Positions 7,568 to 26,842 of a stretch of DNA of 64,000 bases are shown here, one piece after another (position 1 is the first letter of the stretch; each line of letters starts with the position of its first letter). A program made the position numbers and the translations under genes. Source of the stretch: an uncultured delta proteobacterium (lineage in GTDB: Bacteria > Desulfobacterota > Desulfobaccia > Desulfobaccales > 0-14-0-80-60-11). Below the pieces are notes generated by a model. It did not search any database and was not told where the DNA came from. It saw nothing but the letters and a program-made list of their open reading frames with translations. Location of the stretch: assembly GCA_963709285.1 (NCBI GenBank), contig CAVPVR010000010.1, forward strand, positions 451,570 to 515,569, read 5' to 3'.

Positions 7568-7635
7568 TTTCTGTATCCTTATTATTGGTCAGTCCATGAC
7601 TGAAGTGATTTCATAGGTCAGGCCTCTCATTGCCC

Positions 7636-9720
7636 CTACCCTACCCGCACCCGGACATCCAAAGCCACCATACCCTCTTCCCCGGGAAAGACCCGCACCG
7701 GGTTCAAGTCCACTTCCTGTATCTGGGGGAAGCGCTCCATGAGATGGGACAGGGCCGACAGGGCCCGGCCGAGGGCCGCCAGGTCAGCGGCAGGCCTTCC
7801 CCGAGCGCCTTGCAGGATCAGGCCCATTTTCGTCTCCAGGATCTGGCGCTGGGCTTCCTGGGGGCTAATGGGGCCTACCCTGAGGGCCACGTCCTCCAAA
7901 ATCTCAGTCCACACCCCGCCGGCGCCAAAAGCAACCACTGCCCCAAAAGCCTGGTCCCGGCGAGCCCCCAGGAGCACCTCCTCGCCTGCGGCGGCCTGTT
8001 TCATAACCACCACCTGCCAGGGCTCCCCCGGCGGCACCTGCACCCGGGCGGTCTCGGCTAACGCGTGAAAAGCCTGGGCTGTGGCCTCTGCATCACCCAG
8101 ATTTAACACCACGCCCCCCACCTCGGTCTTGTGGACCAGGGAGGGGGCGGCAAGCTTCAGGACTACCGGATAGCCCAATTCAGAGGCGGCAGCCAGAACC
8201 TCCCCCTCATTGGCCGCCACCAGCCAGGCAGCCACAGGGATATCCACCGCCTCCAACAGGGTGAGGGCCTGGGGCATGGGTAAAAAGCCGTCCGCTGCCG
8301 CCGTAGTCAAGAGAGCGGCCAGGCGTTCTTCATCAAAACCAGGTTGATCAATCGACGGGTCATCCGCCGGGGGCCGCTGATAAAAGTCCCGGCTGTATGC
8401 CAGGCCACGCACCGCCTGGCCCGGAAAATGAAAAACCGGCACCCCCAGGTCTTCCCGGAAGTACTCTTCCTCCTCCAGGGTATAGCACACACTAATGGCC
8501 AAAGGCTTGCCTGCCGACCGGGAGGTGTTGACAAAGTGCTGGGCCATATCCCGGGCCTCGGCACGTTCCGGGTCATAGACCGGCCCATGGTTCAGGAGCA
8601 CAGCGTCCACCCCCGGGTCCTGGCAGAGATGGTCCATAACCCGGGAGTAGACCCCAAAGTCGAAAATATCCCCCAAATCAATGGGATTAGTGGGTTTGAT
8701 GATCTTGGAGCGGGAGCTTTTGTGGATGAAGTCGGTAATCTCCGGAGCCAGGGGAGGGAGCGTAAATCCCCAGCGTTTGCAGGCATAGGCCCCCACCACC
8801 GCCTCGCCGCCGCTGCGGGAGAGGATCACCAGGCGGTTCCCCTTGACCGGGGCTTGCCCCACCATCTTGGCGGCGATGAGGAAATCAGCCTGGCTCAGCA
8901 CCCGGGAGATGTTCCCCTGGCGACAGGCCGCCTCCACCACCTTTTCATCGGTGGCCAGAGAGGCCGTGTGCGACATGGCGATGCCGGAGGTCTCCGGTAC
9001 CACGTTGGCGATTTGTAAGAACATGGGCTTGCTGGCCCGCTTGGCCACCTCCAGGAGCCCCCGGCCATCTTCCAGGCCCTCGAGGTAGAGGTAGATCATC
9101 TCGGTGCCCGGGTCCTCCAGGAAATAGGCCAGGGCTTCGTTTTCTTGAACGTCCAGCTTGTTCCCCAGGCTCAGGAATTTATTCAGGCCCAGGCCCTCCT
9201 TGTGCATCCAGGCGACCACGTGCATGCCCACGCCGCCGCTTTGGGAAATAACCGAGATGCTGCCCCGCCGGGGCACGGGGGTGATCTGGGAAAACGGCAG
9301 AGACAGGCCGATCTCCATATTGATAACCCCCAGGCCGTTGGGTCCGATGAGCCTGAGGTTGTAGCGCTTAATGAGACCTTTGAGCTCTTCTTCCAGGGCC
9401 CTCCCCTGCTCCCCCAACTCCGAAAAGCCCCCTGACTCCACAACCACCCGGGTGATGCCTAACTCCCCGCAAGCCGCCACCACCTCGGGCACAAAGCGGG
9501 CCGGGGTGAGGATGGCGACCAGGTCCACGGGCTCAGGCAATTCCTGGAGGTGAGTATAAATGGGCTTGCCAAAGACCTCGCCGCCCCGCGGGCCCACCAG
9601 GAAAATTTTCCCCTGGTAGCCAGCCTCCATCATATTTAGGACAATGCCCCGGCCCAGGTTCAAAGGGTTTTCCGAGACACCTATCACTGCCACACTTTGA
9701 GGATAGTAGAATTTTTGCAT
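7636..9720 (-). CDS. ADP-forming acetyl-CoA synthetase / acetate--CoA ligase family (fused alpha and beta domains)
   Basis: CoA-binding N-terminus (VAVIGVSENP), a succinyl-CoA-synthetase-like flavodoxin domain and a C-terminal ATP-grasp domain. I chose the internal start MQKFYYP (ATG at 9720) over the ORF-track start at 9792. Confidence 0.85.
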   Translation of the reverse strand: MQKFYYPQSVAVIGVSENPLNLGRGIVLNMMEAGYQGKIFLVGPRGGEVFGKPIYTHLQELPEPVDLVAILTPARFVPEVVAACGELGITRVVVESGGFSELGEQGRALEEELKGLIKRYNLRLIGPNGLGVINMEIGLSLPFSQITPVPRRGSISVISQSGGVGMHVVAWMHKEGLGLNKFLSLGNKLDVQENEALAYFLEDPGTEMIYLYLEGLEDGRGLLEVAKRASKPMFLQIANVVPETSGIAMSHTASLATDEKVVEAACRQGNISRVLSQADFLIAAKMVGQAPVKGNRLVILSRSGGEAVVGAYACKRWGFTLPPLAPEITDFIHKSSRSKIIKPTNPIDLGDIFDFGVYSRVMDHLCQDPGVDAVLLNHGPVYDPERAEARDMAQHFVNTSRSAGKPLAISVCYTLEEEEYFREDLGVPVFHFPGQAVRGLAYSRDFYQRPPADDPSIDQPGFDEERLAALLTTAAADGFLPMPQALTLLEAVDIPVAAWLVAANEGEVLAAASELGYPVVLKLAAPSLVHKTEVGGVVLNLGDAEATAQAFHALAETARVQVPPGEPWQVVVMKQAAAGEEVLLGARRDQAFGAVVAFGAGGVWTEILEDVALRVGPISPQEAQRQILETKMGLILQGARGRPAADLAALGRALSALSHLMERFPQIQEVDLNPVRVFPGEEGMVALDVRVRVG

Positions 9721-10001
9721 CGTTTCTTCCTGTCTGATAAGAATTCTGAAAAAGCCAGGTAAAGGGAGGGAGTAAGGCCCGGGGACCTCCATCCCTCCCT
9801 CAATCTCTCAGGCCAAACCCTTGACGAAGTAATCCCGGGAACGTTTTCGACCCCGGGATTTTGACCAGGTTATGATATCACATTATTCCACTTCGGCAGG
9901 GAGAGAAAGGAAAAGAACCGGACCTCAAACCTTATTAACTTTTTCGCCGGGTAAGTAGTGCAGACCTGTAGTATAAAAACCTATCCCGAATACTGGCAGG
10001 C

Positions 10002-10646
10002 TTGGGACCCAAAAATCGCCCCGAAGAGGTGAACGTGCTCTACGAAAAGTGTGAGGAGGTAAATGAAGAATTCTGGCAGGAGCTCTCAGGGCTCCCCCCG
10101 GCGGAAGTGACCCGTCGCACCGGCGCTGCCTGGGTTGAAGGCTCCTACCGGCTCTCCTTTCTTGACCGCGTAGGCAAAATTGACCTGGCAAAACGCACTG
10201 TCCAGGTGGAGGGGTTCGAGTCCCGGGACCCTGGCTTCCGGCTCTGTCTCACCGCCCTCCTCTACCTTTCCCGGGTGGACCCCGCCTCGCTGGGGCCGCT
10301 GGTCAGTCCCCTGGAACTTACCGGTGGACCCACCTTTTTCATGGACCGGGGCCCCCACGCACTCCCCAATGCCCCTCTGGAGGAACGCTTTGGGCATGAC
10401 CTGACCGGATTCCTGAACGCGGGAGAGCTCCTGGGCGCGGAACGCCGGGCCGTCGGGGACGCCGCTCTGGCCTTTCAAGTTTTCCCGGGGCTGACGGTGG
10501 AAGTGATTCTCTGGCTGGCGGACGAGGAATTCCCCGCCCAGGTGTCCTTCCGGGTGCCCGGCTCCCTGGAGCGGGTCTGGCATTTGGACGCGGTCCTGGG
10601 ACTCCTGCAGCTCCTTGCCTGGGAAATCCTGGCCACCGCAGCTTAA
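10002..10646 (+). CDS. DUF3786-like protein
   Basis: 214-aa ORF. The pattern EE.W..L....P.EV..R.GA......Y.L.FL ... FF.G.H.LP recalls DUF3786 proteins from memory. The true start is probably the GTG at 10029 or 10035. Confidence 0.5.
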   Translation: MGPKNRPEEVNVLYEKCEEVNEEFWQELSGLPPAEVTRRTGAAWVEGSYRLSFLDRVGKIDLAKRTVQVEGFESRDPGFRLCLTALLYLSRVDPASLGPLVSPLELTGGPTFFMDRGPHALPNAPLEERFGHDLTGFLNAGELLGAERRAVGDAALAFQVFPGLTVEVILWLADEEFPAQVSFRVPGSLERVWHLDAVLGLLQLLAWEILATAA

Positions 10647-10790
10647 CGGATTGGTCTTTTTACCCCGCCAAGGTAACCGCCACCGCGCCAAAACCTGACC
10701 CCTTCAACCTGAAAAGAGCAGGCCTAGTAAGACCAGGAGAGTGCCGCTACCTTGCCAAACCAGGGTGAAGGGGCTACAATGAAAACCCGA

Positions 10791-10865
10791 GCCGGCATAG
10801 CTCAGTGGTAGAGCAGCTGATTCGTAATCAGCAGGTCTGGGGTTCAAATCCCCATGCCGGCTCCA
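10791..10865 (+). tRNA. tRNA-Thr (anticodon CGU), CCA encoded
   Basis: Folded by hand as a cloverleaf: acceptor GCCGGCA/TGCCGGC, D arm GCTC/GAGC, anticodon stem GCTGA/TCAGC with loop TTCGTAA, T arm TGGGG/CCCCA with TTCAAAT, discriminator T plus CCA. Confidence 0.92.
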
Positions 10866-11099
10866 GTTAATTCAATAAGCTAGTCTCATGCTTTTGACCC
10901 GGTGGACGTCTCCATGCCCCCAAAGCGGTAGTTGGAGAGCTTCAATCTACTCAAAGGATTGATACTGCAGGATTACCGCTTCAAAGACCAAGACGACATC
11001 CGGGAATTCTTCCCCCGCCTTACCAGTCTTTATAAGAATTACAACTACAGTGCGCCCGATACCCCTTTACCCTTTCATTGCTCCAGTCAACCCTGGACC

Positions 11100-11489
11100 C
11101 TACAGCATTCCTTCCTGGATGAGCTTGCGCTGGTGGGCCTGGCGCATCTTGTCGAAAAGTTCGTCCAAGGGCACCGGCTTCATGACATAGTCGAAGGCGC
11201 CGAGCTGCATGGCCTGGGCACTTGACTCCACCGAAGCCTCCCCGGTGAGTATGATGACCTCAGTCAAGGGCTTTTTCTTTTTCAACGCTTTCAGGATTTC
11301 GATGCCGTCCAGACCTGGGAGGTGCTCTTCCAGGATCACCACGTCAAAGTCCTGGCTGTCCAACAGTTGCAGGGCCGCCTCACCATGGTCCACCGTGCTG
11401 ACCTCCAGGTCATGGTTTTTGAGGTGCTTCACTATGGTCTCCAGGAAGTCTTGGTCAGCATCCGCTACCAGCACTTTGAATGTTTTCAT
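11100..11489 (-). CDS. Stand-alone CheY-like receiver protein with Glu at the phospho-acceptor position
   Basis: 129 aa. Receiver landmarks are present (ADAD acidic pocket, ILTG Thr, VMKP Lys), but DVVILEEHLPGLDG aligns E where CheY has D57. Confidence 0.85.
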   Translation of the reverse strand: MKTFKVLVADADQDFLETIVKHLKNHDLEVSTVDHGEAALQLLDSQDFDVVILEEHLPGLDGIEILKALKKKKPLTEVIILTGEASVESSAQAMQLGAFDYVMKPVPLDELFDKMRQAHQRKLIQEGML

Positions 11490-11667: not shown

Positions 11668-12582
11668 ATGTCTGAAGAAGTGCTGGGCTCAGTGGTGGTG
11701 GTAGGAGGCGGCATTGCGGGCATGCAGGCTGCCCTCGATTTGGCCAACTCAGGATACTATGTTTACCTGGTGGAAAAAGGCCCCGCCATCGGCGGAACCA
11801 TGGCGCAGATTGACAAGACCTTTCCCACCAACGACTGCGCCATGTGAATTATTTCCCCCAAGCTGGTCGAGGTCGGCCGGCACACCAACATCGAACTCCA
11901 TACTCTGGCCCACGTCAGGGATGTTACCGGCAAGCCGGGGAATCTTGAAATTCTCATTGAAAAGCAAGCCCGCTTCGTGGACCCCGCCAAGTGCACGGGT
12001 TGCGGCACCTGCCTGGATGTCTGCCCCATCCGCTATGAGGTTCAGCTTCCGGACGAAACCAGGGCCCGGGCTGCCTTCTCCCAAGTAACGGACGAACAGG
12101 CGGTGACCGATATCATCGCCCGTCACCGGGACGAGCGGGGCAACCTGTTGCCCGTGCTGTTGGATGTCAACCGCCACTTCAACTGGCTCCCCCGCCCTGC
12201 CCTGGAGCAGGTTTCCGACGAACTCAAGCTGCCCCTGGCAGAAATCCTCCGGGTGGCCAGCTTTTACAATGCCTTTTCCCTGGTCCCCCGGGGCAAGCAC
12301 ATCATCAACGTTTGCATGGGCACAGGCTGTTTCGTCAAGGGCTCACCTCGCCTGTTGGACTCCCTGGAACGGGAACTCGGCCTCAAGCACGGCCAGACCA
12401 CGGAGGACATGCTCTTCACCCTGGAGGTGGTTCGCTGTATCGGCTGCTGCGCCCTGGCCCCGGCCATGCGGGTGGGGGAAGACACCTTCGGGCGTCTCAC
12501 CCCGAGCCTGATCCCCAAAATTCTCAAATCATACGCCGAGTCCTACGGCCGTGAAGATGCGGAGGAGGAAGCGGCGGGATGA
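11668..12582 (+). CDS. Selenoprotein fusion: HdrA N-terminal segment (about 130 aa) fused to a NuoE-type [2Fe-2S] thioredoxin-like domain
   Basis: Hand translation from the ATG at 11668 gives [17 protein letters not shown]...[14 protein letters not shown](11845-11847)-IISPKLVEV...[12 protein letters not shown]. It continues in the same frame (the ORF-track 11977..12582 frame) into NuoE motifs NVCMGTGC and [10 protein letters not shown]. The TGA replaces the Cys of the canonical HdrA NDC.MC motif. Its stop overlaps the next ATG (ATGA). Confidence 0.8.
11863..11880 (+). promoter_or_regulatory. Weak SECIS-like hairpin 15 nt after the UGA at 11845
   Basis: CUGGUC / GGCCGG 6-bp stem (two G-U pairs) with loop GAGGUC. 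It has the same 15-nt spacing as the two stronger hairpins in mvhD and mvhA. Confidence 0.3.
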
Positions 12583-14489
12583 AGGTCAGATCTCTGGAAC
12601 GACTGGCAGATATCAAAAAACAAGGCCTGGCTCTCACCTACCCTGACAAAGTCAAAATTATGGTGGGTATGGCCACCTGTGGTATCTCCGCCGGAGCTGA
12701 TAAGGTCTATGCTGCTTTAGAGGCCAAAATTGCGGAACTGGGCCTGGACGTGGCCTTGGAAAAGACCGGCTGCATCGGTTTCTGTCAGCGAGAACCCCTG
12801 GTAGATGTAGTGTATCCCAAGCAGGTGCGCCTCTCCTATCAGGGCATGACCCCGGAGAAAGCCGAGGGCCTGGTGGAAGCCTTGTGGAAGGGGGAAGTTT
12901 ACCCGGAAAACCTGCTGTGCCGCATCGACCAGGAGGACATATTGGTGGAAGGCCAGGTGCGGCCCTACGCCAACCCCCATCCCCCTACCCTAACGGTGGA
13001 GTTACCCCGGTATGATGAACTGCCCTTCTTCGGCAAGCAGGTGAAAATCGCGCTCCGCAACTGCGGCTTCATCCACCCGGAACGCATCGAAGAATACATC
13101 GCCCGGGGTGGCTATCAGGCCCTTCACCAAGTGCTTACCGGGATGACCCCGGAAGAGGTCATTGCGGAAGTCAAGTCCTCGGGCCTCAGAGGGCGGGGCG
13201 GCGCCGGCTTTCCCACCGGACTCAAGTGGGAGTTCGCCCGCAAAAATGACAGCGACGAGAAATATGTCATCTGCAACGCCGATGAAGGGGACCCCGGGGC
13301 CTTCATGGACCGGGGCATCCTGGAGGGCGACCCCCATGCGGTCATCGAGGGCATGGCCATCGGGGCCTATGCCATCGGCGCCCACGAAGGCTATGTCTAT
13401 TGCCGGGCGGAATATCCCCTGGCCGTTCACCGCCTGAAAATCGCCATCGACCAGGCAGAGGCCCTGGGACTTCTGGGCGATAAGATTTTCGGGACCAATT
13501 TCTCCCTCAAGCTGAAAATCCGTGAGGGCGCCGGCGCCTTCGTCTGTGGCGAGGAGACTTCTCTCATCGCCTCCATCGAGGGCAAAGTGGGCGAACCCCG
13601 CCCCCGGCCCCCCTTCCCGGCCCAAAGCGGTCTCTGGGGCAAGCCTACCATTATCAACAACGTCAAGACCTGGAGTCACATTGCTCCCATCGTCATGCGG
13701 GGCGCGGAGTGGTACGCCGGCTTCGGCACCGAAGGCAGCAAGGGCACCACGGTTTTCGCCCTGGTGGGCAAAGTCAACAACACCGGTCTCGTGGAAATTC
13801 CCCTGGGCATGACGCTTAGGGAAATGATCTTCGACATTGGCGGTGGCATCGCCGGAGGGCGGGAGTTCAAAGCGGTGCAGACCGGCGGCCCCAGCGGCGG
13901 CTGCATCCCGGAGGAGTTTCTGGACACCCCGGTGGACTATGAGTCCCTGGGGGCCCTGGGCTCCATTATGGGTTCTGGCGGCATGATCGTCATGGACGAA
14001 CGGGACTGCATGGTGGACGTGGCCAAGTACTTCATCGATTTCACCCAGGACGAGTCCTGCGGCAAATGCACCCCGTGCCGGGAAGGCACCCTCCGGCTCA
14101 TGGAAATGCTGGAGGCCGTCACCGCGGGCCAGGGTAGCGAGGAGGACCTCGACAAGCTGGCCCACATGAGCGAGTTAATCAAAAAGACCTCGCTCTGTGG
14201 CCTGGGCCAGACCGCGCCCAACCCGGTGCTGTCCACCATCCGTTACTTCCGGGACGAATATCTGGCCCATATCCGGGACGGCAAATGTCCGGCCAAAGTC
14301 TGTAAGCCTCTCATCACCTTCTCGGTTGTCGAAGAAAACTGCACGGGCTGCCAATTATGCCGCCTGAAATGCCCGGCCGAAGCGGTGGCGGGAGCCAAAA
14401 AAGAGGTGCACCACATCATTCAGGAAAACTGCATCAAGTGTGGCACCTGTTTCGAAGGCTGTAAATTCGACGCTATTGTGATTGAATAG
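12579..14489 (+). CDS. NuoF-like NAD(P)H-binding FMN/Fe-S flavoprotein (HydB/NuoF family with N-terminal thioredoxin-like and C-terminal 2x[4Fe-4S] domains)
   Basis: 636 aa. GLRGRGGAGFPTG, the ESCGKCTPCREG N3 cluster motif and two C..C..C...CP motifs at the C-terminus. Confidence 0.9.
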   Translation: MKVRSLERLADIKKQGLALTYPDKVKIMVGMATCGISAGADKVYAALEAKIAELGLDVALEKTGCIGFCQREPLVDVVYPKQVRLSYQGMTPEKAEGLVEALWKGEVYPENLLCRIDQEDILVEGQVRPYANPHPPTLTVELPRYDELPFFGKQVKIALRNCGFIHPERIEEYIARGGYQALHQVLTGMTPEEVIAEVKSSGLRGRGGAGFPTGLKWEFARKNDSDEKYVICNADEGDPGAFMDRGILEGDPHAVIEGMAIGAYAIGAHEGYVYCRAEYPLAVHRLKIAIDQAEALGLLGDKIFGTNFSLKLKIREGAGAFVCGEETSLIASIEGKVGEPRPRPPFPAQSGLWGKPTIINNVKTWSHIAPIVMRGAEWYAGFGTEGSKGTTVFALVGKVNNTGLVEIPLGMTLREMIFDIGGGIAGGREFKAVQTGGPSGGCIPEEFLDTPVDYESLGALGSIMGSGGMIVMDERDCMVDVAKYFIDFTQDESCGKCTPCREGTLRLMEMLEAVTAGQGSEEDLDKLAHMSELIKKTSLCGLGQTAPNPVLSTIRYFRDEYLAHIRDGKCPAKVCKPLITFSVVEENCTGCQLCRLKCPAEAVAGAKKEVHHIIQENCIKCGTCFEGCKFDAIVIE

Positions 14490-14537
14490 CTATAAGCTAT
14501 AAGCTTTAAGCCTTAAGCTTTAAGCAATAAGCTATTA
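14489..14537. repeat. 7-bp tandem repeat (GCTWTAA x7) starting in the nuoF-like stop codon
   Basis: Read directly: gctataa gctataa gctttaa gccttaa gctttaa gcaataa gctatta. Confidence 0.85.
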
Positions 14538-14610
14538 GAAAATGTAGGGCGCGTCGTCTCACGCGCCATCAATATGTGCTCAAAGCTCACAGCTCCAAAA
14601 GAAAGCCCCT

Positions 14611-17600
14611 ATGGTTACCTTAACAATCAATGACAAACCCATAGAAGTCCACGAGGGCACCACTGTATTGGCCGCGGCCCGGCAGTTGGGCGTCAACATC
14701 CCCACCCTCTGCCATCAGGAAGGCCTCAAACCTTATGGCGGTTGCCGCCTCTGCCTGGTGGAAGTGACCGCCGGTCCCCGTACCCAGCTCACTGCGTCCT
14801 GCACCTACCCCGTGGCCGAGGGCCTGGTAGTGCAGACCGACACGGAGGAGGTGCTGGCCGGCCGCCGCCTGGTCATGGATCTCCTCTTGTCCAGGTGTCC
14901 CGAGGTGCCGGCCCTGCAGGAGATGGCTCGGCAAGTGGGCCTCGAAGAGCCCAGCTTCGCCAAGGGGGAAAGTGACTGCATTTTGTGCGGCAAGTGTGTG
15001 CGCATGTGCTTTGAAGTCCAGGGGGTGGGCGCCATCAGCATGGTAAACCGGGGCGCCAAACGGCAAGTCGTCACTCCGTTCGGGGAGTTTTCCCAGGTGT
15101 GCCGCACCTGCGGGGCCTGCCAGTTCGTCTGCCCCACCGGCCACTTCACCGATATCGGCGGCATCAGTGGCAAAACCGCCATACCCCAAGGCGCTGAGTT
15201 TAACCAGGGCCTCAACAGCCGGGGCAACATCTTCCGCACGTATCCCCAGGCGGTGCCCAACACCCCCACCATCGACCGGGATAACTGCATCCATTTTTTG
15301 ACGGGGGACTGCGGCTTGTGCGCCGAAGCCTGCGCCGCTGAGGCCATCGACTATGAGCAACAGGAAGAAACTGTTACCCTCCAGGCCGGCAGCGTAATTT
15401 TGGCTCCGGGGTTCAAGCCCTATGACCCCACCGTTCTGATCGACTATGGCTACGGTGTCTACCCCAACGTTTACACCAGCCTCGAGTTTGAGCGCATCCT
15501 CTCTCCCGGGGGCCCCTTCGCCGGGCACATCCAGCGCCGCTCTGACGGCAAGGAGCCCCAGAAAATCGCCTGGCTCCAGTGTGTGGGCATGCGGAGCGAT
15601 AAGGAAGGGTATCATCCTTACTGTTCAGGGTTCTGCTGCATGGCCTCCCTCAAACAGGGCATGATTGCTAAAGAGCACCAGGGCACCGACCTGGACACCG
15701 CGGTTTTCTACATGGATATGCGCACGCCCCGCAAGGACTTCGAAAAATACTACGCCAGGGCCGAAGACCTGGGGGCTCGCCTCATCCGCTCCCGGGTGCA
15801 CTCCATTCACGAGGACGAGCAGACCCAAGACCTCAGCTTGCGCTACACCATGGAAAGTGGAGAGCTCAAAGAAGAAACCTTTGATATGGTGGTCCTGTCC
15901 GTGGGCGGAGTCATCACCCGGGATGTCATCGACTTGGCTCAAAAGCTCAAGGTGCGCCTGTCCCACAACCGCTTCATGGACACTGAGTGCTTTAAGCCGG
16001 TGACCACCTCTCGGCCGGGTATTTACTCCTGCGGCTTTTTCAACGGCCCCAAGGACATTCCCCAAACCGTGATGGAAGGGCAGCGCCGCCGCCATGGAGG
16101 CCTCCAAAGAATTGGCCATGGCCAAGGGCACCCTCATCCGGCAGAAGGAATTCCCCCCGGAACAGGACTTTTCCGGACCAGCCGGCCCGCATTGGGGTCT
16201 TTGTGTGCCACTGCGGTCTGAACATCGGGGGTACCGCCGATATTCCGGAAATTGTTGAGTATGCTCAGAACATCCCCAACGTGGAGTATGTCCAGGCCAA
16301 CCTCTTCTCCTGCTCCCAGGATGCCCAGGCCCAGATGGTGGAGATGATCAAGGAGCACGACCTCAACCGGGTGGTGGTGGCGGCCTGCAGTCCCTCCACG
16401 CACCAACCCATTTTTCAGGATATGCTCAGGAACGCCGGCCTCAACAAATACCTCTTTGAGATGGCCAATATCCGCAACCAGTGCACCTGGGTGCACCAGC
16501 ACAACCCGGAGATGGCCACCGACAAGTGCAAGGACCTGGTGCGCATGGCCGCGGCCAAGTCCGGTCTGCTGCAACCTCTAGACTACCTCTCCGTGCCGGT
16601 GAACAAAAAGGCTCTGGTCATCGGCGGCGGCGTCGCCGGCATGACCACTGCTCTGGGGCTGGCGGAACAGGGCTACGAAACGCATCTGGTGGAACGCAAA
16701 GACCGCCTGGGCGGCAATGCCTTGCGCCTGCACAGCACCTGGCGGGGCGGCCTGGTGGGCTGGCGGCTTGAGCGGCTCCTGGCCAACGTGACTCAGCCAT
16801 CCCCGCATCACCGTGCATTACAAGGCCATTGTCACCGGGGTTGAAGGGGTGGTGGGGAACTTCAAGACCAAGCTCAGCAGCGGCGCAGTCGTCAACCACG
16901 GCGTGGTGGTCCTCGCCACCGGCGCCGAGCCTTACCGTCCGGAGGGTCAGTTCCTTTACAAAAAGCACCCCAACGTGCTGCTGTCCCTGGATCTGGATCA
17001 GGAATTCATCAATGAAACCGACCGGCTGAAAGAAGCCCAGGCCTTCGCCTTCATCCAGTGCGTCGGCTCCCGGTCCCCGGAACGGCCGTATTGCATGAAG
17101 GTGTGCTGCTCCCACTCGGTGGAGAATGCCCTCAAGATCAAAGAACATGGACCCCGATAAAGACGTCTACGTCCTGTACCGGGATATGCGCACCTATGGC
17201 GAGCGGGAGATGTTGTATACCGCAGCCCGGGAAGCGGGCGTGATTTTCATCCGCTATCACCATGAGGACCCGCCCCACGTGGAGGAAGCGCCGGACGGCC
17301 GCATCAGGATCACGACGAAAGACCACATTCTGAATAGGCCGGTCACCTTCGACGTGGATGTCCTGACTCTGGCCACGGCCATCATTCCGCACCACAATGC
17401 GCCCCTGGCCGAACTCTACAAGATCCCCTTGAACGCCGAGGGCTTTTTCACTGAGGCCCACGCCAAGATCAAACCGGTGGACGCACCCACGGAAGGCATC
17501 TATCTGGCGGGGCTGTGCCACTATCCCAAGCCCCTCCAGGAGTCGGTGGCCGAGGCCCTGGCCACGCGCGGCCCGAGCCTCCACCATCCTGGCCCAGGAC

Positions 17601-17870
17601 ACCTTGTTGCTGGAGTCCACCATCTCCCGGCCCATCGACGAAAATTGCGACGGCTGCGCCTTCTGCGTGGACACCTGCCCCTTCCAGGCCATCACTCTCC
17701 TCGAGTACATGAGCGACGGCCATGTGAAAAAAACCGTGGAAGTGAGCGAGGTGCAGTGCAAAGGCTGCGGCTCGTGTATGGCCACCTGCCCCAAGCAGGG
17801 CATTGAAGTGTCGGGTTTCACCATGGAGCAACTCCAGGCCATGGTGGACGCAGCCCTGGAAGTGGCCTGA
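14611..17870 (+). pseudogene. hdrA: NuoG-N-like [2Fe-2S]/[4Fe-4S] ferredoxin domain fused to the remainder of HdrA; frame-disrupted about 5 times as given
   Basis: Residues 1-190 are a 2Fe-2S plus 4Fe-4S domain (CHQEGL.PYGGCRLC). From 15181 (IPQGAEFNQGLNSRGNIFRTYPQAVP) the sequence is colinear with HdrA. Homology continues through ORF-track pieces 16203..16844 (VFVCHCGLNIGG), 16813..17160, 17126..17806 and 17604..17870 (C-terminal 2x[4Fe-4S]). Frame changes occur near 16079, 16185, 16793, 17149 and 17563, each consistent with one extra base. Confidence 0.8.
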
Positions 17871-17923
17871 TGTTTTCTGTGGATAACCAAGCTTACTTGT
17901 GCTTAAATAGCAGGTCATGAACC

Positions 17924-18343
17924 ATGGAAGAACAGTTCGAACCGTTACTGATCGCCTTCCTCTGCAACTGGTGCTCCTATGCCGGTGCGGACCTGGCCGG
18001 AGTGTCGCGGATTCAGTACCCTGCCAACGGCCGCATCATCCGGGTGATGTGCTCCGGCATGGTGCACCCCAACCTGGTCATCAACGCCCTCACCAAAGGG
18101 GCGGACGGTGTCCTGATGTGCGGGTGACACCTGGGCGAATGTCATTACCTGGAAGGTAATGTCAAAGCACAAAGCCGGGCGGAAGGCATCGATCTCATGC
18201 TGGAGGACTTCGGGCTGGAGCCCGAGCGCTTCCGCCTCGAGTGGATCTCCTCCTCCGAAGCCCAAAAATTTGCGGACGTCATGACCGAGATGGTGGAGAC
18301 TTTGCGGGAGTTGGGTCCCAGTCCCTATAGCACCAGGTACTGA
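17924..18343 (+). CDS. mvhD: MvhD/FlpD-type hydrogenase delta subunit, selenoprotein
   Basis: LIAFLCNWCSYAGADLAG...GADGVLMCG-TGA(18125-18127)-HLGECHYLEGN...LEWISSSE. The TGA sits where MvhD has the Cys of GC..G.CHY. The frame stays open to the TGA at 18341-18343. Confidence 0.85.
18143..18161 (+). promoter_or_regulatory. SECIS-like hairpin 15 nt after the mvhD UGA
   Basis: Perfect 7-bp stem CAUUACC/GGUAAUG with loop UGGAA. Confidence 0.5.
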
Positions 18344-18387
18344 AGCTCGACACTAGTAAGATCGTTTCCCCTGAATCGGAAAACACC

Positions 18388-18582
18388 ATGGATATACCTT
18401 TGGCCCAGAAAATTGACGGCAAAAAGTTTCTGTGGGATAACGTCAACTATGAATCCCGGGAGGTAGCCCAAAAGGCCATGGAGGCCTATGAGCAGGAGGG
18501 CTTTGAAGTGGAGCTGATCGAAATCGAGGGTCAGTTCCTGGTTTACTCCCGGCGCCTGGCGGCCGTGCAATCAGCAGAATAA
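18388..18582 (+). CDS. Hypothetical 64-aa protein between mvhD and mvhG
   Basis: ORF-track ORF that fills the mvhD-mvhG gap on the same strand. No family recognised. Confidence 0.4.
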   Translation: MDIPLAQKIDGKKFLWDNVNYESREVAQKAMEAYEQEGFEVELIEIEGQFLVYSRRLAAVQSAE

Positions 18583-18612
18583 CCCCAACACCTACCATGA
18601 AGGAGGGAGGAG

Positions 18613-19560
18613 ATGGCGGTAAGAGTCGTGGAAGACTGGCTAAACGCCTGTTCGGGATGCGAGATTTCCATCCTCAACATCGGCGACCCGTTACTGGACA
18701 TTCTGCCCCTGCTCGAGTTTCACCACATGACCGCGCTGGTGGATCACAAGTTCTTCGGTCAGCTCGGAGATAAGACGGACATGGAGATCCCTGAGGCCGA
18801 CGTGGCCATTGTCTCCGGCGGGGTGCGGAATGAAGAGATGAAACACGAACTGGAGGAGATTCGCAAGAAAACCCAAATTCTCATAGCCCTGGGAAGCTGT
18901 GCCGCCTACGGGGGCATCCCCGCCCAGGCCAACATGTGGAAGAATGAAGACATCTTTGAAAAAGTCTTCCGCCACTGCGCTTCCACCGAACCCGGCCCGG
19001 ACCCCACTGATCCCAGTGTGCCGAAATGGACTCCCACCTGCATGGCGGTGGACGAGGTGGTCAAGGTGGACATCACCATCCCCGGCTGCCCGCCTCACCC
19101 GGACTGGATCGTGGACGCCCTCACCGCGGTGTTGGAAGGCAAGGCCGACTGGAAACTCCCTGAGCGCAGTGTCTGTGACACCTGCCCGGTGATCCGGGAG
19201 AAGAAATCTTCCGGCGGCTCGGTCAAGCGGGTGTTTGAAAATGCGGAATTCAATCCCGAGGAAGGCCTGGACAAGATGCGCTGCATTAACGAGCAGGGCA
19301 TCCTGTGCATGGGACCGGTGACCCTGGCGGGTTGCGCCGGCAAGGAAGGGGTGCCCCGCTGCGTGCAGGCCCGCACCCCCTGCCGGGGCTGTTTCGGGCC
19401 CATCCGCAAGGGGGCCAACCCCATGGTGGACATGATGGGTTCCCTTACCTCCGTGGGACTCGACGCCAAGACCCTGGTGGACCGCCGGGCTCTCATGAAC
19501 CGCTACATCGGCGGCCACGGCATGCTCAAGCCGCTACCGCCCCGCCCGGTGCGGAGATAA
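18613..19560 (+). CDS. mvhG: [NiFe]-hydrogenase small subunit, Mvh/F420-non-reducing type
   Basis: 315 aa. The N-terminus lacks a Tat signal (cytoplasmic type). Has the CSGCEISILN proximal cluster motif and further Cys clusters (GCPP, C..C, CRGC). Confidence 0.9.
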   Translation: MAVRVVEDWLNACSGCEISILNIGDPLLDILPLLEFHHMTALVDHKFFGQLGDKTDMEIPEADVAIVSGGVRNEEMKHELEEIRKKTQILIALGSCAAYGGIPAQANMWKNEDIFEKVFRHCASTEPGPDPTDPSVPKWTPTCMAVDEVVKVDITIPGCPPHPDWIVDALTAVLEGKADWKLPERSVCDTCPVIREKKSSGGSVKRVFENAEFNPEEGLDKMRCINEQGILCMGPVTLAGCAGKEGVPRCVQARTPCRGCFGPIRKGANPMVDMMGSLTSVGLDAKTLVDRRALMNRYIGGHGMLKPLPPRPVRR

Positions 19561-19572
19561 GGGGGTAAACCT

Positions 19573-21019
19573 ATGGGCAAAGTTATCAATATCCAGCCAG
19601 TGACCAGAATCGAAGGGCACGCCAAAGTGTCCATCTTCCTGGACGACGCCGGCAACGTCTCCGACACCAGGTTTTACGTCCAGACCTTACGGGGTTTCGA
19701 AAAGTTCTGCGAAGGCCGTCCGGCCGAAGAAATGCCCCGCATTGTCTGCCACATCTGCGGCATCTGCCCCTGGGCCCATCATCTGGCCTCCAGCAAGGCC
19801 ACGGATGCGCTGTTCGGGGTGACGCCGCCGCCGGCCGCGGTGAAGCTGCGCCGTCTCATGCAGTCCATCGCCTACGTCAGCGACAAGATCCTCCACTTCT
19901 TCTTCCTGGCCGCGCCGGACTTCGTCATCGGCCCCGACGCCGACTACTGCGGTGCGCAATGTCATCGGCATCGTCAAGGCCGCGCCGGACATCGCCAAGC
20001 AGGTGGTGCACTATCGGCACCTGGGGGCCAAGCTGCTGGAGGACTTCGCGGGTCGGGCCATTCACCCCACCTTCTCCTTGCCCGGCGGGGTGAGCAAGCC
20101 CATGACCGAGACCGAACGCCAGGCGATGCTCCCCGCGGCCAAAGAACTCCTGGAGTTCTCCAAGTTCACCATCAAGTTTGCCAAGGAAAACGTCTTCCCG
20201 AAGTACCTGGAGGCCATCGAAAAAATCGGCGTCATCAAGGTGGGCTATCTGGGCACGGTCACCGACGACGGCGCTCTGGACTTCTATGACGGCAAGCTTC
20301 GCCTCATGCAGCCCGACGGCGCCTTCGATGATTTCGCCTACGACCAGTACGTGGACTATATTGGGCGAGCATATCGAAGACTGGTCCTATCAGAAGTTCC
20401 CCTACGCCAAGAAGTGGGGCGGCTTCGCCCTGGACCTGGCCAACCCCCAGGGGGTCTACCGCACCAACACCCTGGCCCGGATCAACGTGGCCGACAAGAT
20501 GAAGACCCCCCTGGCCCAGGCCGAGCTCGAAGAGTTCCGGGAAAAGTTCGGGCGGCCGGCCCACTTGACCCTGCTCTATCATTACGCCCGCCTCATCGAG
20601 ATGGTCCAGTGCGCCGAGGAAGCGGTCATGCTCCTGGAAGACCCGGAGATCACCGACACCAACATCCGGGTGAAGATCGAACCCCGGGAAGCCAGGGGCG
20701 TGGGCTGTGTCGAAGCGCCCCGGGGCACCCTGATCCATGACTACACCATGGACAGCAATGGCGCTCATCACCAGCGTCAACCTGATTGTGGGCACCACCC
20801 ACAACAACGCCGCCATCAACCTCTCCGTCACCCAGGCGGCCCAGGAGTTAATCAAGGAAGGCACGTATGACCAGGGCATCCTCAACACGGTGGAAATGGC
20901 CATACGCGCCTACGACCCGTGACTGAGCTGCGCCACCCACCGCCTGGACGGCGGTGTTGCAGTCGAGAGTCACCATCCTGAACAACCAAGGCCAGGTGAT
21001 CGATAAGCTCAGCAACTAA
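19573..21019 (+). pseudogene. mvhA: [NiFeSe]-hydrogenase large subunit, Mvh type; frame-disrupted about 4 times as given
   Basis: N-terminal RIEGH and RICGICP motifs. Homology continues through ORF-track pieces 19952.., 20178.. and 20737.. . The C-terminal motif reads YDP-TGA(20920-20922)-LSCATH, the DPU..C..H NiFeSe signature. The tail VTILNNQGQVIDKLSN* needs one more shift near 20962. Other shifts lie near 19951, 20364 and 20762. Confidence 0.85.
20938..20956 (+). promoter_or_regulatory. SECIS-like hairpin 15 nt after the mvhA UGA
   Basis: Perfect 7-bp stem CACCGCC/GGCGGUG with loop UGGAC. It has the same geometry and UGGA loop start as the mvhD hairpin. Confidence 0.5.
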
Positions 21020-21053
21020 TTCTCCGCTCGTTGCGGATTCGCTGAAAAATAAT

Positions 21054-21102
21054 CTGGGGCCCCAGGACATTTTCCTTCCCGTCCTGCGGCCCCAGCCTTT
21101 TT
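21054..21102 (+). terminator. Rho-independent terminator of the hydrogenase operon
   Basis: CTGGGGCCCCAGGAC ... GTCCTGCGGCCCCAG gives 14 of 15 paired positions, followed by CCTTTTT. Confidence 0.65.
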
Positions 21103-21245: not shown

Positions 21246-21773
21246 TTATTCCATCTCCAAACGCCGAACCTCATCATCTGCCGCCCAGTCAAGATTATAA
21301 ATACCCCGGCGCACGTACGTGTGGAAGCTGGAATAAGGCCAATCCGCCACCTTCGTGACGTGACCGTGCTTCACCGGATTGTAGTGGATGTATTCCACGT
21401 GACGCTCAAAATCATGCTCGTCCCGGATGACGTGTTCCCAAAAACGACGCTGCCAAATGCCTCGTTCCCCCTTCTGCCGGCGACGCGCTGAAAGCCTCTC
21501 CCCTCCGGGAATTTTGGCTGCAAATCGTGCTTTGATATCATGCCAGCGCGTTGAGAAATCCGCGTCCCCGGAAGGCAACGTCCAGATACAATGGAGGTGA
21601 TCGGGCAAAATGACGATGGCCTCGATAGTGAATGGTCGGCGTTGGCGGGCCGCCCTGAACGACGCCCGAAGATCGTCAATGTGTTCGGTCAAGAGTTTTC
21701 GATGGCGTTCCAGCAAGGCAACCGTGAAAAAGAACGTGCCTCCTGGAACAAAGGCGCGAAGGTATTGCGGCAT
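21246..21773 (-). CDS. REP-associated tyrosine transposase (RAYT, IS200/IS605-like Y1 transposase)
   Basis: 175 aa. Has the LPDHLHCIW HuH motif and a C-terminal YIHYNPVKHG catalytic Tyr region, and is flanked by REP units. Confidence 0.85.
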   Translation of the reverse strand: MPQYLRAFVPGGTFFFTVALLERHRKLLTEHIDDLRASFRAARQRRPFTIEAIVILPDHLHCIWTLPSGDADFSTRWHDIKARFAAKIPGGERLSARRRQKGERGIWQRRFWEHVIRDEHDFERHVEYIHYNPVKHGHVTKVADWPYSSFHTYVRRGIYNLDWAADDEVRRLEME

Positions 21774-21799
21774 GACGTCAGTTTACCCCAATTCTTTAA

Positions 21800-21832
21800 G
21801 GCGGGATGCGCTTCGCTTTCCCGCCCTACGGG
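21800..21832 (-). repeat. REP unit (inverted orientation) just upstream of the RAYT start
   Basis: ggcgggatgcgcttcgctttcccgccctacgg is the reverse complement of the REP consensus. Confidence 0.75.
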
Positions 21833-21911
21833 TTACTACGGGTTACGGAAATAGGGACAGTGAGTTTCACAAACACTTATACCACAAATATTACTCGCTT
21901 CGACTTATCTG

Positions 21912-22675
21912 CCCTATATTCCCGATTCCAAGCTTCATAAAAACGCCCTGGCCTCATTGGCAAAATTCCCCGTGCTGAAACCTCGTCCCCCAGCTCTGTT
22001 AAGGAACGCCCTTGGCGCCAGGCTCCCCGTGGCTTGTCAAAAAACCGCCCCGTCCCTTCCAGATAATGGTAACCGGAAAAATATGCTTCGAACTCTAGGG
22101 TAACCTCCCCAGGCCGTAAGGACCGTAGGGCGGGAAAGCGCCGCGCATCCCCCTTTCGCCTCATTCCATCTCCAGACGCCGACCAGGAGTGACCTTCCCC
22201 GCCTAACCGCGCCCTTTGTCCCAGCCGTACTGGCTCCCTAAACCACCTCTGCTACAGTAAATCCGTGGACTACGAGTATCATGGCCCAGGTTTCTCTTTC
22301 CCAAGGTTTCTGGGTTTAACTCCCCCTCCCCCGGCGGGAGGGGGGTGGGGGGAGGGGGATTTGCCAGCGTTTATTCAATCCCCCGATTCCATCCCAGTTC
22401 TCCGGGGGCAGAAAAAATGAAATGTTGCGGAACAAGAAATACCTATCCTAAAGCTAACCTACCGACATTACCAGAATATTTGGGCAATTTGTTGCGGCTC
22501 AGAAGCGGCACAATTCGCAAACTGTGCGGTACGATGTGGCACACCAGCGGGAACTTTGCGGTAATATCCGACACTGTTCCGCAATTTGCACCGCTCCATC
22601 CCGCCCCGTCCCGCTCGAACCGAAACGGGGTCAAGCGACAAAGACCTTCGATTATGTCTCTCGCCCCGCCATCGA
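21912..22675. repeat. Composite non-coding repeat, copy I (modules C1 21912-22111 and B1 22235-22675, interrupted by a REP plus a RAYT 3' remnant)
   Basis: Long blocks near-identical to 27596-28613. Examples: ctatatt.gcgat.ccaagctt..., hairpin GTTCCCCAG-N6-CTGGGGAAC, ...cctctgctacag..., gtttctctttcccaaggtttctgggtttaactccccctcccccggcgggagggggg..., ggatttgccagcgtttattcaat...gttgcggaac...ctttgcggtaatatccgacactgttccgcaa. Indels between the copies break every ORF. Confidence 0.8.
22120..22190 (+). repeat. REP unit plus about 30-nt remnant of a second RAYT gene 3' end
   Basis: 22120-22153 matches the REP consensus. 22158-22186 (tcgcctcattccatctccagacgccgacc) parallels 21241-21270, the last codons (RRLEME*) of the intact RAYT gene. 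Confidence 0.6.
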
Positions 22676-22799
22676 TAAGCTCAGCAACTAATTCTCCGCT
22701 CGTTGCGGATTCGCTTACAATTAATCTGGGGCCACCGGACGTTTTTCTTCCCGTCCTGCGGCCCCAGCTTTTTACGAACCAATAATAAAATGTTATCGA
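22671..22799 (+). repeat. Diverged duplicate of the mvhA 3' end plus terminator (copy of 20999-21126)
   Basis: atcgataagctcagcaactaattctccgctcgttgcggattcgct...ctggggcc.c.ggac...gtcctgcggccccag.ttttt is shared by both copies at roughly 85-90 percent identity by eye. The terminator-like hairpin is at 22726-22774. Confidence 0.8.
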
Positions 22800-22896
22800 T
22801 ATTGACAAGTTTTCAGCAAATCTATTCAATCTGACAGACTGCTTTGCCTTGGTGCAACATCTCCATGGGGGGTGATCCTCATAAATCCTAACTCCG

Positions 22897-23736
22897 TCAC
22901 GCTCCGCCAGGACCTCTGGGTTGATCTGGTGCCAAGCCTAACTTAAAACTTGGTACAATTGCTGAAGGCAGGTCATTCCGGGTCGGCGGCTCAGGGTCGT
23001 CAGTCAGAGGCGGTTGGCAAACTGGACACCTGATGCAGCCTGCCTTTTGGGCCTCGTCCACGGACTGGAAGACCCGAACTTTTCTCGGAATGATGGTTTT
23101 GGCCCACTTGCATTCGGGGTAATGGTATTTGTTGGAGGTGATGGACCCCACGTACGTGACTGCAGGGGTTGTTGGTTCCTGGGGAGTGTTGCTTACGGGC
23201 AAGGATTCCTGGTCGGCTGGCAGAGCTGAGGTCTCTCGGTCCGAAGCAGGGGTTTTGGGTTCCTGGGGGACCGGATTACCGGGCTGATCAGGCGACTTCA
23301 GGGAACGCGACCCTTTTTCTGGCGGCTGGGCAGGGATGATCTGCCTGATGGTCTGCCTCGATTTTTTGCCAGACAAGGCAAAGTTCTCCCTGAGAGAGAG
23401 GGAGAGCAGGCTGGACGCGAACATGAACGCACCCATGAGAAGGCAAAAAATAGAACCATAGATGGTGAGGCGGCGGACCTGGCTCTCCACCCTGGCCAGT
23501 CGCTCCAAAATCTTCGTCTCCTCGTAGGATTTCCTCGCCCGTTCGATGATACCTTCCTCTTCCAGAGGGGACACGACCTTATTCATTTTATTATCTGGCA
23601 GGGGCGGATTTGCCGCAGTCTCACCGGTGCTGGCCTCTTTTTTCACCACCTGGTTGAAATTGTGCATATCAACCTGGGAGTCCAGCTTCTCCGTGAAAAT
23701 CGAACTCTGCACCTCGTCTTTCATGAGTTTCTTCAA
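22897..23736 (-). CDS. Single-pass membrane protein with a C-terminal Ada-type Cys4 zinc-binding domain
   Basis: 279 aa. One TM helix (IYGSIFCLLMGAFMFASSLLSL), a Pro-rich linker and YHYPECKWAK...FQSVDEAQKAGCIRCPVCQP, which matches the Ada metal-binding domain pattern. The ATG at 23724 may be the real start. Confidence 0.6.
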   Translation of the reverse strand: MKKLMKDEVQSSIFTEKLDSQVDMHNFNQVVKKEASTGETAANPPLPDNKMNKVVSPLEEEGIIERARKSYEETKILERLARVESQVRRLTIYGSIFCLLMGAFMFASSLLSLSLRENFALSGKKSRQTIRQIIPAQPPEKGSRSLKSPDQPGNPVPQEPKTPASDRETSALPADQESLPVSNTPQEPTTPAVTYVGSITSNKYHYPECKWAKTIIPRKVRVFQSVDEAQKAGCIRCPVCQPPLTDDPEPPTRNDLPSAIVPSFKLGLAPDQPRGPGGA

Positions 23737-23934
23737 CTCCCGTCATTCTTGGTCGAGACTGGCTAACCTGGCCTCGAGTTCTTGTTGCACCGGTATTTCC
23801 GACGCTTCTGACCAAGGAACTGAGAGTCTTTCTGGCGTAAGAGTTGACAAAAAACGTCTCCTGACTACTTTATCATTCCCATCAAAGGCCTCATCCCAGG
23901 TGAGCCGCTCATGGGCCTCTCCTTTGGTCAGGCC

Positions 23935-25053: not shown

Positions 25054-25146
25054 TAAACTCCTTTATACTGTAATAAAAAAAGGGCCAGATTCAGGAATCA
25101 CTCCTTGGTCTGACCCTCCCGGGGTTCCGCCAATCAAACTGTTAGT

Positions 25147-25404
25147 TTAGATTATGCTGTAAGTTATTTCATTTACCACCAGACATCCTTTGCATTTAAT
25201 TCTTATCTTTGTGCTGTTTTCGGGTTTTATCTCGGCAAGAAGTTTGTCACATACAAAACATCTTTGTTTAATAAAATCATTATTCGAGCTCAAATTAATG
25301 GTAATGCACTGCCTGACGATTTTGCCGTTGTTGTCTGGCAGATTTTCTATCACAACTTGATCGTCATTAAGCTTGCAGTGTGAATGTTTCAACATAAACC
25401 TCAA
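25147..25404 (-). CDS. Small AT-rich ORF with a Com-like zinc finger
   Basis: 85 aa. CFVCDKLLAEIKPENSTKIRIKCKGCLVVNEI resembles the Mu Com C..C.KLL...IKC..C finger. It lies in a low-GC segment. Confidence 0.35.
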   Translation of the reverse strand: MRFMLKHSHCKLNDDQVVIENLPDNNGKIVRQCITINLSSNNDFIKQRCFVCDKLLAEIKPENSTKIRIKCKGCLVVNEITYSII

Positions 25405-26817: not shown

Positions 26818-26842
26818 TCAATGTTTATACGTTTTTGGCTAA

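Follow-up and report, generated by a model that had tools for sequence, protein, structure and literature searches.

Electron bifurcation is the route by which strict anaerobes make low-potential ferredoxin from weak reductants, and its HdrA-type and Bfu-type forms have so far been studied as separate mechanisms. Here we describe an operon of seven co-directional genes (11668-21019) in a stretch of 64,000 nucleotides, referred to as the window, from the genome of an uncultured member of the Desulfobaccales (assembly GCA_963709285.1, contig CAVPVR010000010.1, positions 451,570 to 515,569). The genes, designated g1, g2, g3, mvhD, a small open reading frame (ORF), mvhG and mvhA (Table 1), appear from their domain content to make the operon a hybrid of two known systems, Mvh-Hdr and NiFe-Bfu. 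A Bfu core is encoded by g1 to g3 in such a way that it interrupts an HdrA protein, and a selenocysteine-containing [NiFeSe] hydrogenase follows.

The MvhAGD-HdrABC complex of methanogens (5ODC and later Vhu/Hdr structures) shares with the operon homologues of MvhA, MvhG and MvhD, and an HdrA that is homologous over four domains (515 bits to 5ODC_A). The operon differs from it in lacking a gene for HdrB or HdrC, in having what looks like a fused HdrA pseudo-dimer in place of a homodimer, in that one HdrA module is split by a NuoE-NuoF-NuoG insertion, and in the presence of a site for nicotinamide adenine dinucleotide (NAD(H)). The NiFe-HydABCSL hydrogenase of Acetomicrobium mobile (7T2R/7T30) possesses the BfuB that is the closest solved relative of g2 and resembles the operon in its BfuC-type NuoE, its BfuA-type N-terminus and its group-3 [NiFe] large subunit (402 bits); its substrates are those predicted for the operon as well, namely H2, NAD(H) and ferredoxin. 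In the Acetomicrobium enzyme a long HydA, carrying clusters A1-A5, joins HydS directly to HydB, with A3 and A5 contacting the hydrogenase small subunit, whereas the operon has no such long HydA. Its BfuA is cut to about 200 residues and fused to HdrA, HdrA and MvhD come between BfuA and MvhG, BfuC is fused to an HdrA fragment, and three of the subunits contain selenocysteine (Sec).

The BamBCDEFGHI complex (Bam-Bfu), also of Desulfobacterota, combines an HdrA-like BamE, an MvhD-like BamF and a BfuABC module, BamGHI, and it has been proposed to contain two bifurcation modules arranged in series (PMC9304861). Its catalytic end is a tungsten class II benzoyl-CoA reductase, BamBC, together with BamD, and not a hydrogenase; no gene for a tungsten aldehyde-oxidoreductase-type BamB, a BamC or a BamD was detected with Pfam in the operon or in the flanking ORFs. 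In the Bam complex BamE/F and BamGHI are separate subunits (PMC9304861), whereas the HdrA of the operon is split apart by the Bfu genes. Judged by these comparisons the Bam complex would be the nearest described architectural relative, and it is the sole described combination of HdrA-like, MvhD-like and BfuABC components that we found. The FlxABCD-HdrABC and HdrL-type proteins of sulfate reducers likewise contain NAD(H)-linked HdrA/MvhD modules, but these use FlxA or a glutamate-synthase-like NAD(P)H domain and not a Bfu core; Flx-Hdr is without a hydrogenase, and BfuB has been shown in none of these systems. The MvhADG-HdrA clusters without hdrBC, and HdrL, of Desulfobacterium autotrophicum are precedents at the sequence level only (PMC2702500). 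A full-text literature search returned no description of a NuoEF-split HdrA joined to Mvh, and a prior description is possible.

Table 1. Features of the operon, and of other genes of the source genome referred to in the text. Positions are those of the window unless a contig (C2, C3 or C10) is given.
Feature	Position	Strand	Description
g1	11668-12582	+	303 amino acids (aa); HdrA N-terminal piece fused to NuoE/BfuC-type [2Fe-2S] domain
In-frame TGA, g1	11845-11847	+	Sec in CAMU; alignment Cys invariant at position 60
g2	12579-14489	+	NuoF-like BfuB, 636 aa, intact; Pfam Complex1_51K, NADH_4Fe-4S, C-terminal 2x[4Fe-4S]
g3	14611-17870	+	~1083 aa; short BfuA-like N-terminus, rest of split HdrA, second HdrA-like module; frame-broken here
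Insertions in g3 (+1 each)	at or next to 16078, 16177, 16791, 17148, 17566	+	MAFFT alignment
Insertion before mvhD	17922	+	two bases 5' of mvhD start
mvhD	17924-18343	+	139 aa, [2Fe-2S] subunit; Pfam FlpD, E 1e-52; NCBIfam VhuD
In-frame TGA, mvhD	18125-18127	+	Sec in CGUHLGECH
Small ORF	18388-18582	+	64 aa; conserved
mvhG	18613-19560	+	hydrogenase small subunit, 315 aa, intact; Pfam Oxidored_q6; best NCBIfam VhuG, 206 bits
mvhA	19573-21019	+	[NiFeSe] large subunit, ~480 aa; best NCBIfam VhuA; frame-broken here
Insertions in mvhA	at or next to 19949, 20363, 20763, 20967	+	MAFFT alignment
In-frame TGA, mvhA	20920-20922	+	Sec in DPULSCATH
Terminator-like hairpin after mvhA	21053-21066	+	consensus scan only; weak evidence
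HycI-type maturation protease	34192-34680		downstream flank
Orphan hdrC-hdrB pair	C10:313201-314669	-	no hdrA or mvhD nearby; then SpeH-like gene; 150 kb from operon
hdrC-hdrB pair	C3:359195-360629		adjoins own 1184-aa HdrA and separate nuoE-nuoF
HdrD-like gene	C2:141987-143852		two CCG domains; directly upstream of dsrC-type gene
825-codon frame	C3:346971-349025	-	MvhD domain, weak HdrA-like similarity
gyrA	C3:197943-200329		only copy; extra bases at C3:198615 and 199872

Forward frames were read with TGA open and the pieces were scanned against Pfam and NCBIfam. For all seven genes the scans bear out the gene list and coordinates of a first-pass annotation of this DNA, and they agree with its assignment of a Vhu/Mvh-type [NiFeSe] hydrogenase, MvhD, HdrA and an NAD(H)-binding NuoEF to a single operon. 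The NuoF-like subunit g2 is, as far as alignments can tell, a complete BfuB. Its best solved relative is 7T2R_B, the HydB subunit of the A. mobile enzyme (residues 27-633, 809 bits, E 3e-242), followed by the B subunits of Nfn-Bfu, Stn and HydABC, with NuoF of complex I far behind and matching the central part only. In the alignment to 7T2R_B the B2 cluster ligands C438, H525, C531 and C536 are kept and a Thr stands at C476. The B2 His is found in virtually all bifurcating BfuB proteins and is absent from non-bifurcating homologues, while Thr takes the place of C476 in about two thirds of BfuB (PMC9304861). Models of the N-terminal 2Fe-2S ferredoxin match residues 34-112 of g2, and Fer4_21 matches residues 583-633; between them lie the FMN/NADH site and the [4Fe-4S] cluster B1. 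With the fused BfuC of g1 and the short BfuA of g3, the operon therefore has a complete Bfu core, in which every feature recognizable at the sequence level is present: the BfuB domains, the B2 ligand set including the His, and an adjacent BfuC and BfuA, both fused to parts of HdrA. The first-pass annotation had made HdrA the bifurcating centre. Since g2 is a full BfuB, HdrA is not the sole candidate site; BfuB with its B2 ligands, BfuC and BfuA constitute a second module, one that is self-sufficient in other enzymes, and HdrA is probably not the main site of bifurcation.

Close relatives of g2 also occur outside this arrangement. At two loci (L103, G005:C5; L104, G001:C16) a plain NuoF that is 76-80% identical to g2 is found in a cluster with a short BfuA, about 1.4 kb of uncharacterized sequence and NuoE. 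These loci were considered as Cys versions of the operon and ruled out, being plain NuoF / short BfuA / NuoE clusters without HdrA; the Bfu module likely derives from a cluster of this type or is sister to one. The source genome yielded no close counterpart of such a cluster, its best other NuoF match having 52-57% identity.

The HdrA of the operon is both split and doubled. Residues 5-131 of g1 correspond to positions 138-265 (of 777) of the HdrA2 profile and comprise the start of the Rossmann fold for flavin adenine dinucleotide (FAD), the cluster motif and the first Cys motif of the inserted ferredoxin domain; residues 142-289 match NuoE / 2Fe-2S_thioredx with its invariant set C216/C221/C257/C261. 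Homologues of about 300 aa with the same fusion top the list of matches to g1, which holds 4936 entries at E<=1e-20, some of them plain NuoE. The N-terminus of g3 (residues 1-180) matches Fer2_4 and carries a NuoG/HoxU-type [2Fe-2S] and 2x[4Fe-4S] arrangement, its best solved match being 9MQX_A, a short BfuA of 247 aa. Residues 195-484 of g3 then correspond to positions 259-543 of the HdrA2 profile, resuming where g1 ends. By these profile positions the NuoE, NuoF and NuoG-N units lie inside the inserted ferredoxin domain of HdrA, between its two Cys motifs. The remainder of g3 (residues ~520-1083) is a second HdrA-like module, absent from the first-pass annotation, which consists of an N-terminal cluster domain with every Cys retained (VCHCGLNIGG...), an FAD fold with the GxGxxG motif and, at the C-terminus, a 2x[4Fe-4S] domain. 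Aligned to 5ODC_A, this second module is without the DCxxC motif, in place of which GGNALRLHSTW is found, and without an inserted ferredoxin domain. All four HdrA domains (N-terminal cluster, FAD with DCxxC, inserted ferredoxin and C-terminal ferredoxin) are present, distributed across two polypeptides and two modules. The tandem HdrA would be a fused pseudo-dimer, wherein the two modules jointly give one copy of each domain of the methanogen HdrA dimer interface.

Five other tandem-HdrA genes (L046, L051, L060, L094 and L098) contain a different insert, of ~1.3-1.4 kb, at the same point between HdrA-N and HdrA-C. This insert may be an HdrL-type NAD(P)H module, and the inserted ferredoxin domain of HdrA looks like a recurrent insertion site.

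The first-pass annotation had proposed that the operon couples H2, NAD(H) and probably ferredoxin, and this coupling is still the most reasonable reading of its Mvh/HdrA/NuoEF content. We infer a single complex, and regard it as slightly more likely than not that the operon specifies one soluble multi-subunit enzyme in which the Bfu site splits electrons while HdrA and MvhD connect. Here, H2 would be split or made at the Sec-containing [NiFeSe] site of MvhA, and electrons would pass by way of MvhG to the [2Fe-2S] cluster of MvhD, to the C-terminal di-cluster domain of the second HdrA module and on to the FAD of the first. From this FAD they would cross the inserted ferredoxin domain, its two halves reassembled, and then the short BfuA to reach the Bfu core. 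The second HdrA module would supply the N-terminal cluster and the C-terminal di-cluster domains, and the first a fully equipped FAD site, its inserted ferredoxin domain having been opened to carry NuoE/BfuC and the short BfuA, with BfuB encoded in between. The Bfu core would exchange hydride with NAD(H) and single electrons with ferredoxin (Fd), the splitting taking place at its flavin mononucleotide (FMN)/iron-sulfur (FeS) site. The predicted net reaction, which would be reversible, is 2 H2 + NAD+ + 2 Fdox = NADH + 2 Fdred + 3 H+, as for HydABC and NiFe-HydABCSL. Potentials relevant to it are -320 mV for NAD+ and -414 mV for H2 (PMC5861303), and potentials for the reversible H2/NAD+/ferredoxin reaction are also available (PMC9304861). 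HdrA and MvhD would function as a connecting, and possibly gating, module that replaces the long HydA of the Acetomicrobium enzyme. What HdrA adds could be gating, a further bifurcation of the kind proposed for Bam-Bfu, or an outlet to HdrBC via its conserved N-terminal domain.

The same domains could also be read with the FAD of HdrA as the sole bifurcating site, wherein NuoEF would be an NAD(H) dehydrogenase forming the high-potential branch in place of HdrBC, and ferredoxin would be reduced at HdrA. The first HdrA module keeps both the FAD motif and the DCxxC(U) cluster motif, and the possible HdrL-type proteins with another NAD(P)H module at apparently the same insertion point fit such an arrangement. 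NAD+ is also thermodynamically fit to be the high-potential partner for H2 and ferredoxin (PMC5861303). However, g2 has every extra feature that divides a bifurcating BfuB from a plain NuoF, including the ferredoxin-facing C-terminal clusters, and the Bfu module sits in the inserted ferredoxin domain, so that the ferredoxin site of HdrA is probably occupied. In methanogen HdrA enzymes the inserted ferredoxin domain is the proposed exit on the ferredoxin side. We therefore consider HdrA as the only site of bifurcation to be quite unlikely, and prefer the Bfu core as the place of splitting.

The arrangement of g1 to mvhD is widely distributed. A scan of species-representative genomes matched at least 599 stretches, and a tblastn survey of gene contexts over 80 loci recovered a conserved four-gene core: HdrA-N::NuoE, NuoF, NuoG-N::HdrA-C::HdrA2 and MvhD. 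This core is found in Desulfobacterota, Acidobacteriota, Bacillota, Planctomycetota, Spirochaetota, Ignavibacteriota, Latescibacterota, Fibrobacterota and Chloroflexota, and in two archaeal metagenome-assembled genomes (MAGs). It can stand alone (L017, L023, L030 and L036, the second and fourth of which have no MvhD match) or be preceded by hdrC-hdrB (L018, L019, L024, L038, L040 and L042, with L019 beside acetyl-CoA synthase genes). The hydrogenase genes mvhG-mvhA follow the core in the family of the window (L011-L016) and in L025, L028 and L039, and precede it in L021, L026 and L033. An HdrC-like gene occurs together with mvhG or mvhGA in L020, L022, L039 and L034, the last of these also having hdrB. 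The core with mvhGA and without hdrB is found in Acidobacteriota (L025) and Latescibacterota (L028), as well as in L021, L026 and L033, and the survey thus places a hydrogenase without adjacent hdrCB among several natural combinations.

Within the family of the window, six loci have the identical seven genes in identical order with all three TGA codons. The stop codon of g1 and the start codon of g2 share an ATGA at 12579-12582, as the first-pass annotation had pointed out, and the remaining spacers along the operon measure 121, 53, 44, 30 and 12 nt. Scanning the operon for promoters and terminators yielded nothing usable except the weak hairpin 3' of mvhA. Part of the spacer between g2 and g3 (14489-14537) is a period-7 array of GCTATAA / GCTTTAA units, and an AGCTTAA-type repeat is visible at the same position in a same-genus orthologue (L014).

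The hydrogenase large subunit, read through its frame breaks, possesses the RIEGH, CGIC and DPULSCATH motifs and matches Pfam NiFeSe_Hases. Among solved structures it scores 417 bits with 9SW2_F (the A subunit from an F420-non-reducing hydrogenase), 406 bits with 5ODC_F (MvhA), 402 bits with 7T2R_D (HydL of A. mobile) and 370 bits with an NAD-reducing hydrogenase. The best NCBIfam families for the large, small and [2Fe-2S] subunits, VhuA, VhuG and VhuD, score below their equivalog cut-offs, partly since pieces were scored. By best family the hydrogenase would be Mvh/Vhu-like, similarity alone being insufficient to distinguish group 3c from the type found in A. mobile.

The three in-frame TGA codons of g1, mvhD and mvhA are kept in 7 related loci, and homologues in Acidobacteriota, Latescibacterota and Bacillota have Cys instead, Sec and Cys being equivalent at these sites; selB was found in the source genome. 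The Sec positions in HdrA, VhuD and VhuA/U we take to be the same as in the Methanococcus enzymes. At one same-family locus (L012, G016:C22, positions 2-2020) a second Sec-containing mvhA and hycI lie directly upstream of the operon copy. The small ORF between mvhD and mvhG is also conserved: its 64-aa product has tblastn matches in 14 loci of several phyla (including L020, L022, L025, L026, L033, L042, L044 and L094), travels with the HdrA/Bfu/Mvh module and is characterized by the motif GKKFMWDG...Y...GFE...LVYSRR. Its AF2 model is confident (predicted local distance difference test score 86) and has a beta-beta-alpha-beta-beta order; it matched no Pfam or NCBIfam family and no PDB fold below E 0.4.

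The upstream flank holds pyrF and genes for a cytidylyltransferase, ClpB, a Sir2 protein, a transporter, an ADP-forming acyl-CoA synthetase and a divergent receiver protein, and the downstream flank a RAYT transposase, repeats, a Tad gene, an efflux system and the HycI-type maturation protease. In relatives (L012, L016, L021, L026, L033 and L094) the protease gene is directly 3' of mvhA; in the window it is 13 kb downstream. No CCG/HdrB, HdrC-type or other reductase gene was detected with Pfam in the flanking ORFs (480-11489 and 21246-38994), and none adjoins the operon in the six orthologous same-family loci, so that the first-pass description of a module without hdrBC holds for the gene order.

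For the genome as a whole that description needs amending. Genome-wide there are 10 CCG-domain matches, among them the two hdrC-hdrB pairs on contigs C3 and C10 and the HdrD-like gene beside dsrC on C2 (Table 1); hdrC-hdrB also precedes the same core in other lineages. Tandem-HdrA genes number about eleven in the genome, and MvhD domains about ten. Two other large Hdr/NuoEF/MvhD clusters were encountered, at C3:346700-360700 and C3:790000-804000. The former has the order hdrC, hdrB, 1184-aa Sec-containing tandem HdrA, nuoE, nuoF and the 825-codon frame, while the latter looks frame-broken.

An HdrBC encoded in trans has therefore to be weighed. The operon would then be the hydrogenase/NADH half of a Mvh-Hdr-type enzyme, completed most simply by the orphan hdrCB of contig C10. 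The HdrA FAD would bifurcate the electrons of H2, with the high-potential one passing via HdrC and HdrB to a disulfide (of DsrC type or another thiol) and the second entering the Bfu core, making a three- or four-substrate enzyme like that of the hdrCB-core-mvhDGA clusters of other lineages. Consistent with this are the six loci noted above with hdrC-hdrB directly before the core, the HdrC-like matches before cores with or near mvhG(A) in L020, L022 and L039, and the hdrC-hdrB of L034. The orphan pair has neither hdrA nor mvhD nearby. Among 30 relatives examined, the four same-genus genomes with the operon are precisely those in which close orthologues of its HdrB (76-84% identity) occur; three same-genus genomes without the operon have only paralogues of 35-59% identity. 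The N-terminal cluster domain, which faces HdrC in methanogen enzymes, is conserved. However, the orphan HdrB and HdrC share only 26-41% identity with core-adjacent hdrCB elsewhere, no more than the other HdrB of the genome does, and the roughly eleven tandem-HdrA genes compete for two hdrCB pairs. The co-occurrence is suggestive and serves as a lead only, for the genomes are close kin and a single event in one genus may account for it; seven-gene operons without hdrCB are, moreover, conserved across a family and recur in other phyla. On this balance, completion by a separately encoded HdrBC appears rather unlikely, though more probable than bifurcation at HdrA alone.

Several observations also weigh against the simple enzyme of H2, NAD(H) and ferredoxin that we favour. 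The Bfu core may be sufficient in itself, yet HdrA has been kept, with its ~1200 residues and one or two FAD sites. The N-terminal cluster domain of the second HdrA module is fully conserved, hinting at a third partner; the same core adjoins hdrCB in many lineages; and one hdrCB pair in the genome lacks a neighbouring hdrA. Because HdrA may contribute gating, a further bifurcation or an outlet to HdrBC, the simple enzyme is given only slightly better than even weight, and an HdrBC encoded in trans a lesser share.

Two of the seven genes are interrupted in the window. The frame of g3 passes through 1, 2, 0, 1, 2, 0 and that of mvhA through 1, 2, 0, 1, 2; in the six orthologous loci of the same family g3 is a single open frame (1090-1129 codons), as is mvhA (~485 codons with one TGA). 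When the region was aligned by MAFFT to three orthologues from the same genus, ten single extra bases proved unique to the window, five in g3, one before mvhD and four in mvhA, and there was no window-specific deletion inside a gene. Two small window-specific gaps are non-coding: the first falls at the 5' end, where the aligned segment was trimmed, and the second, of 2 nt, before the small ORF. Conceptual removal of the insertions gives full-length proteins with every cofactor motif retained.

These breaks raise the possibility, foreseen in the first-pass annotation as one that would undo its reading, that g3 and mvhA are genuine pseudogenes and that the operon is decaying in this organism. 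The nine frame-breaking insertions fall in two of the seven genes and none in the other five, and the maturation protease, adjacent to mvhA in relatives, is here displaced behind mobile and repeat DNA. The answer comes from gyrA, a single-copy essential gene of the same genome, which is split over three frames and carries two like insertions, with no deletions, relative to three same-genus orthologues. The gyrA alignment was used in place of a genome-wide frameshift count based on coding potential because at the 57% G+C of this genome overlapping open frames cannot tell frameshifts from gene junctions. Elsewhere rpoC is intact, the dsrA match ends at 324 of 402 positions, and in a related MAG of the MFD-named series these operon genes are frame-broken too, at different positions. 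Once the insertions are set aside, neither g3 nor mvhA contains a stop codon or a deletion; both retain ~85% DNA identity to their orthologues and keep their cofactor motifs intact, and all events are +1 insertions, which is a signature of error and not a mutational spectrum. Clustering of the ten insertions within 4.9 kb, with none in the preceding 4.4 kb of the operon, is a point against error. Because gyrA, present in one copy only, is damaged in the same manner, a fault of assembly is nonetheless much more likely than decay; the frame breaks are very probably errors of this kind, and pseudogenes seem highly improbable.

The operon may, tentatively, be the hydrogenase-bearing form of a widespread enzyme class, of which our literature search returned no characterization, in which HdrA flavin and Bfu FMN/FeS bifurcation modules are hard-wired in series, although we consider this doubtful. 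If true, electron pairs from H2 would be split twice, which could bring potentials or coupling ratios beyond the reach of either module by itself; alternatively, a third acceptor could be coupled through the conserved HdrC-facing domain. The one known enzyme with both types, the Bam complex, has a bifurcating reaction that has resisted demonstration (PMC9304861). The operon offers a simpler natural case, as its predicted substrates (H2, NAD+ and ferredoxin) are easily assayed and its modules are fused at a defined point, and its relatives in many phyla include variants with and without HdrBC and with and without a hydrogenase.

Mvh/Hdr clusters are labelled simply 'MvhADG-HdrABC' in some genome surveys (for example, PMC12590816). 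Put on clusters such as this one, the label would obscure their connection to NAD(H), and the fluxes of hydrogen and redox carriers in sulfate reducers and syntrophs would be assigned wrongly. In a sulfate reducer, the enzyme could supply reduced ferredoxin and NADH during growth on H2, or vent both as H2 in syntrophy.

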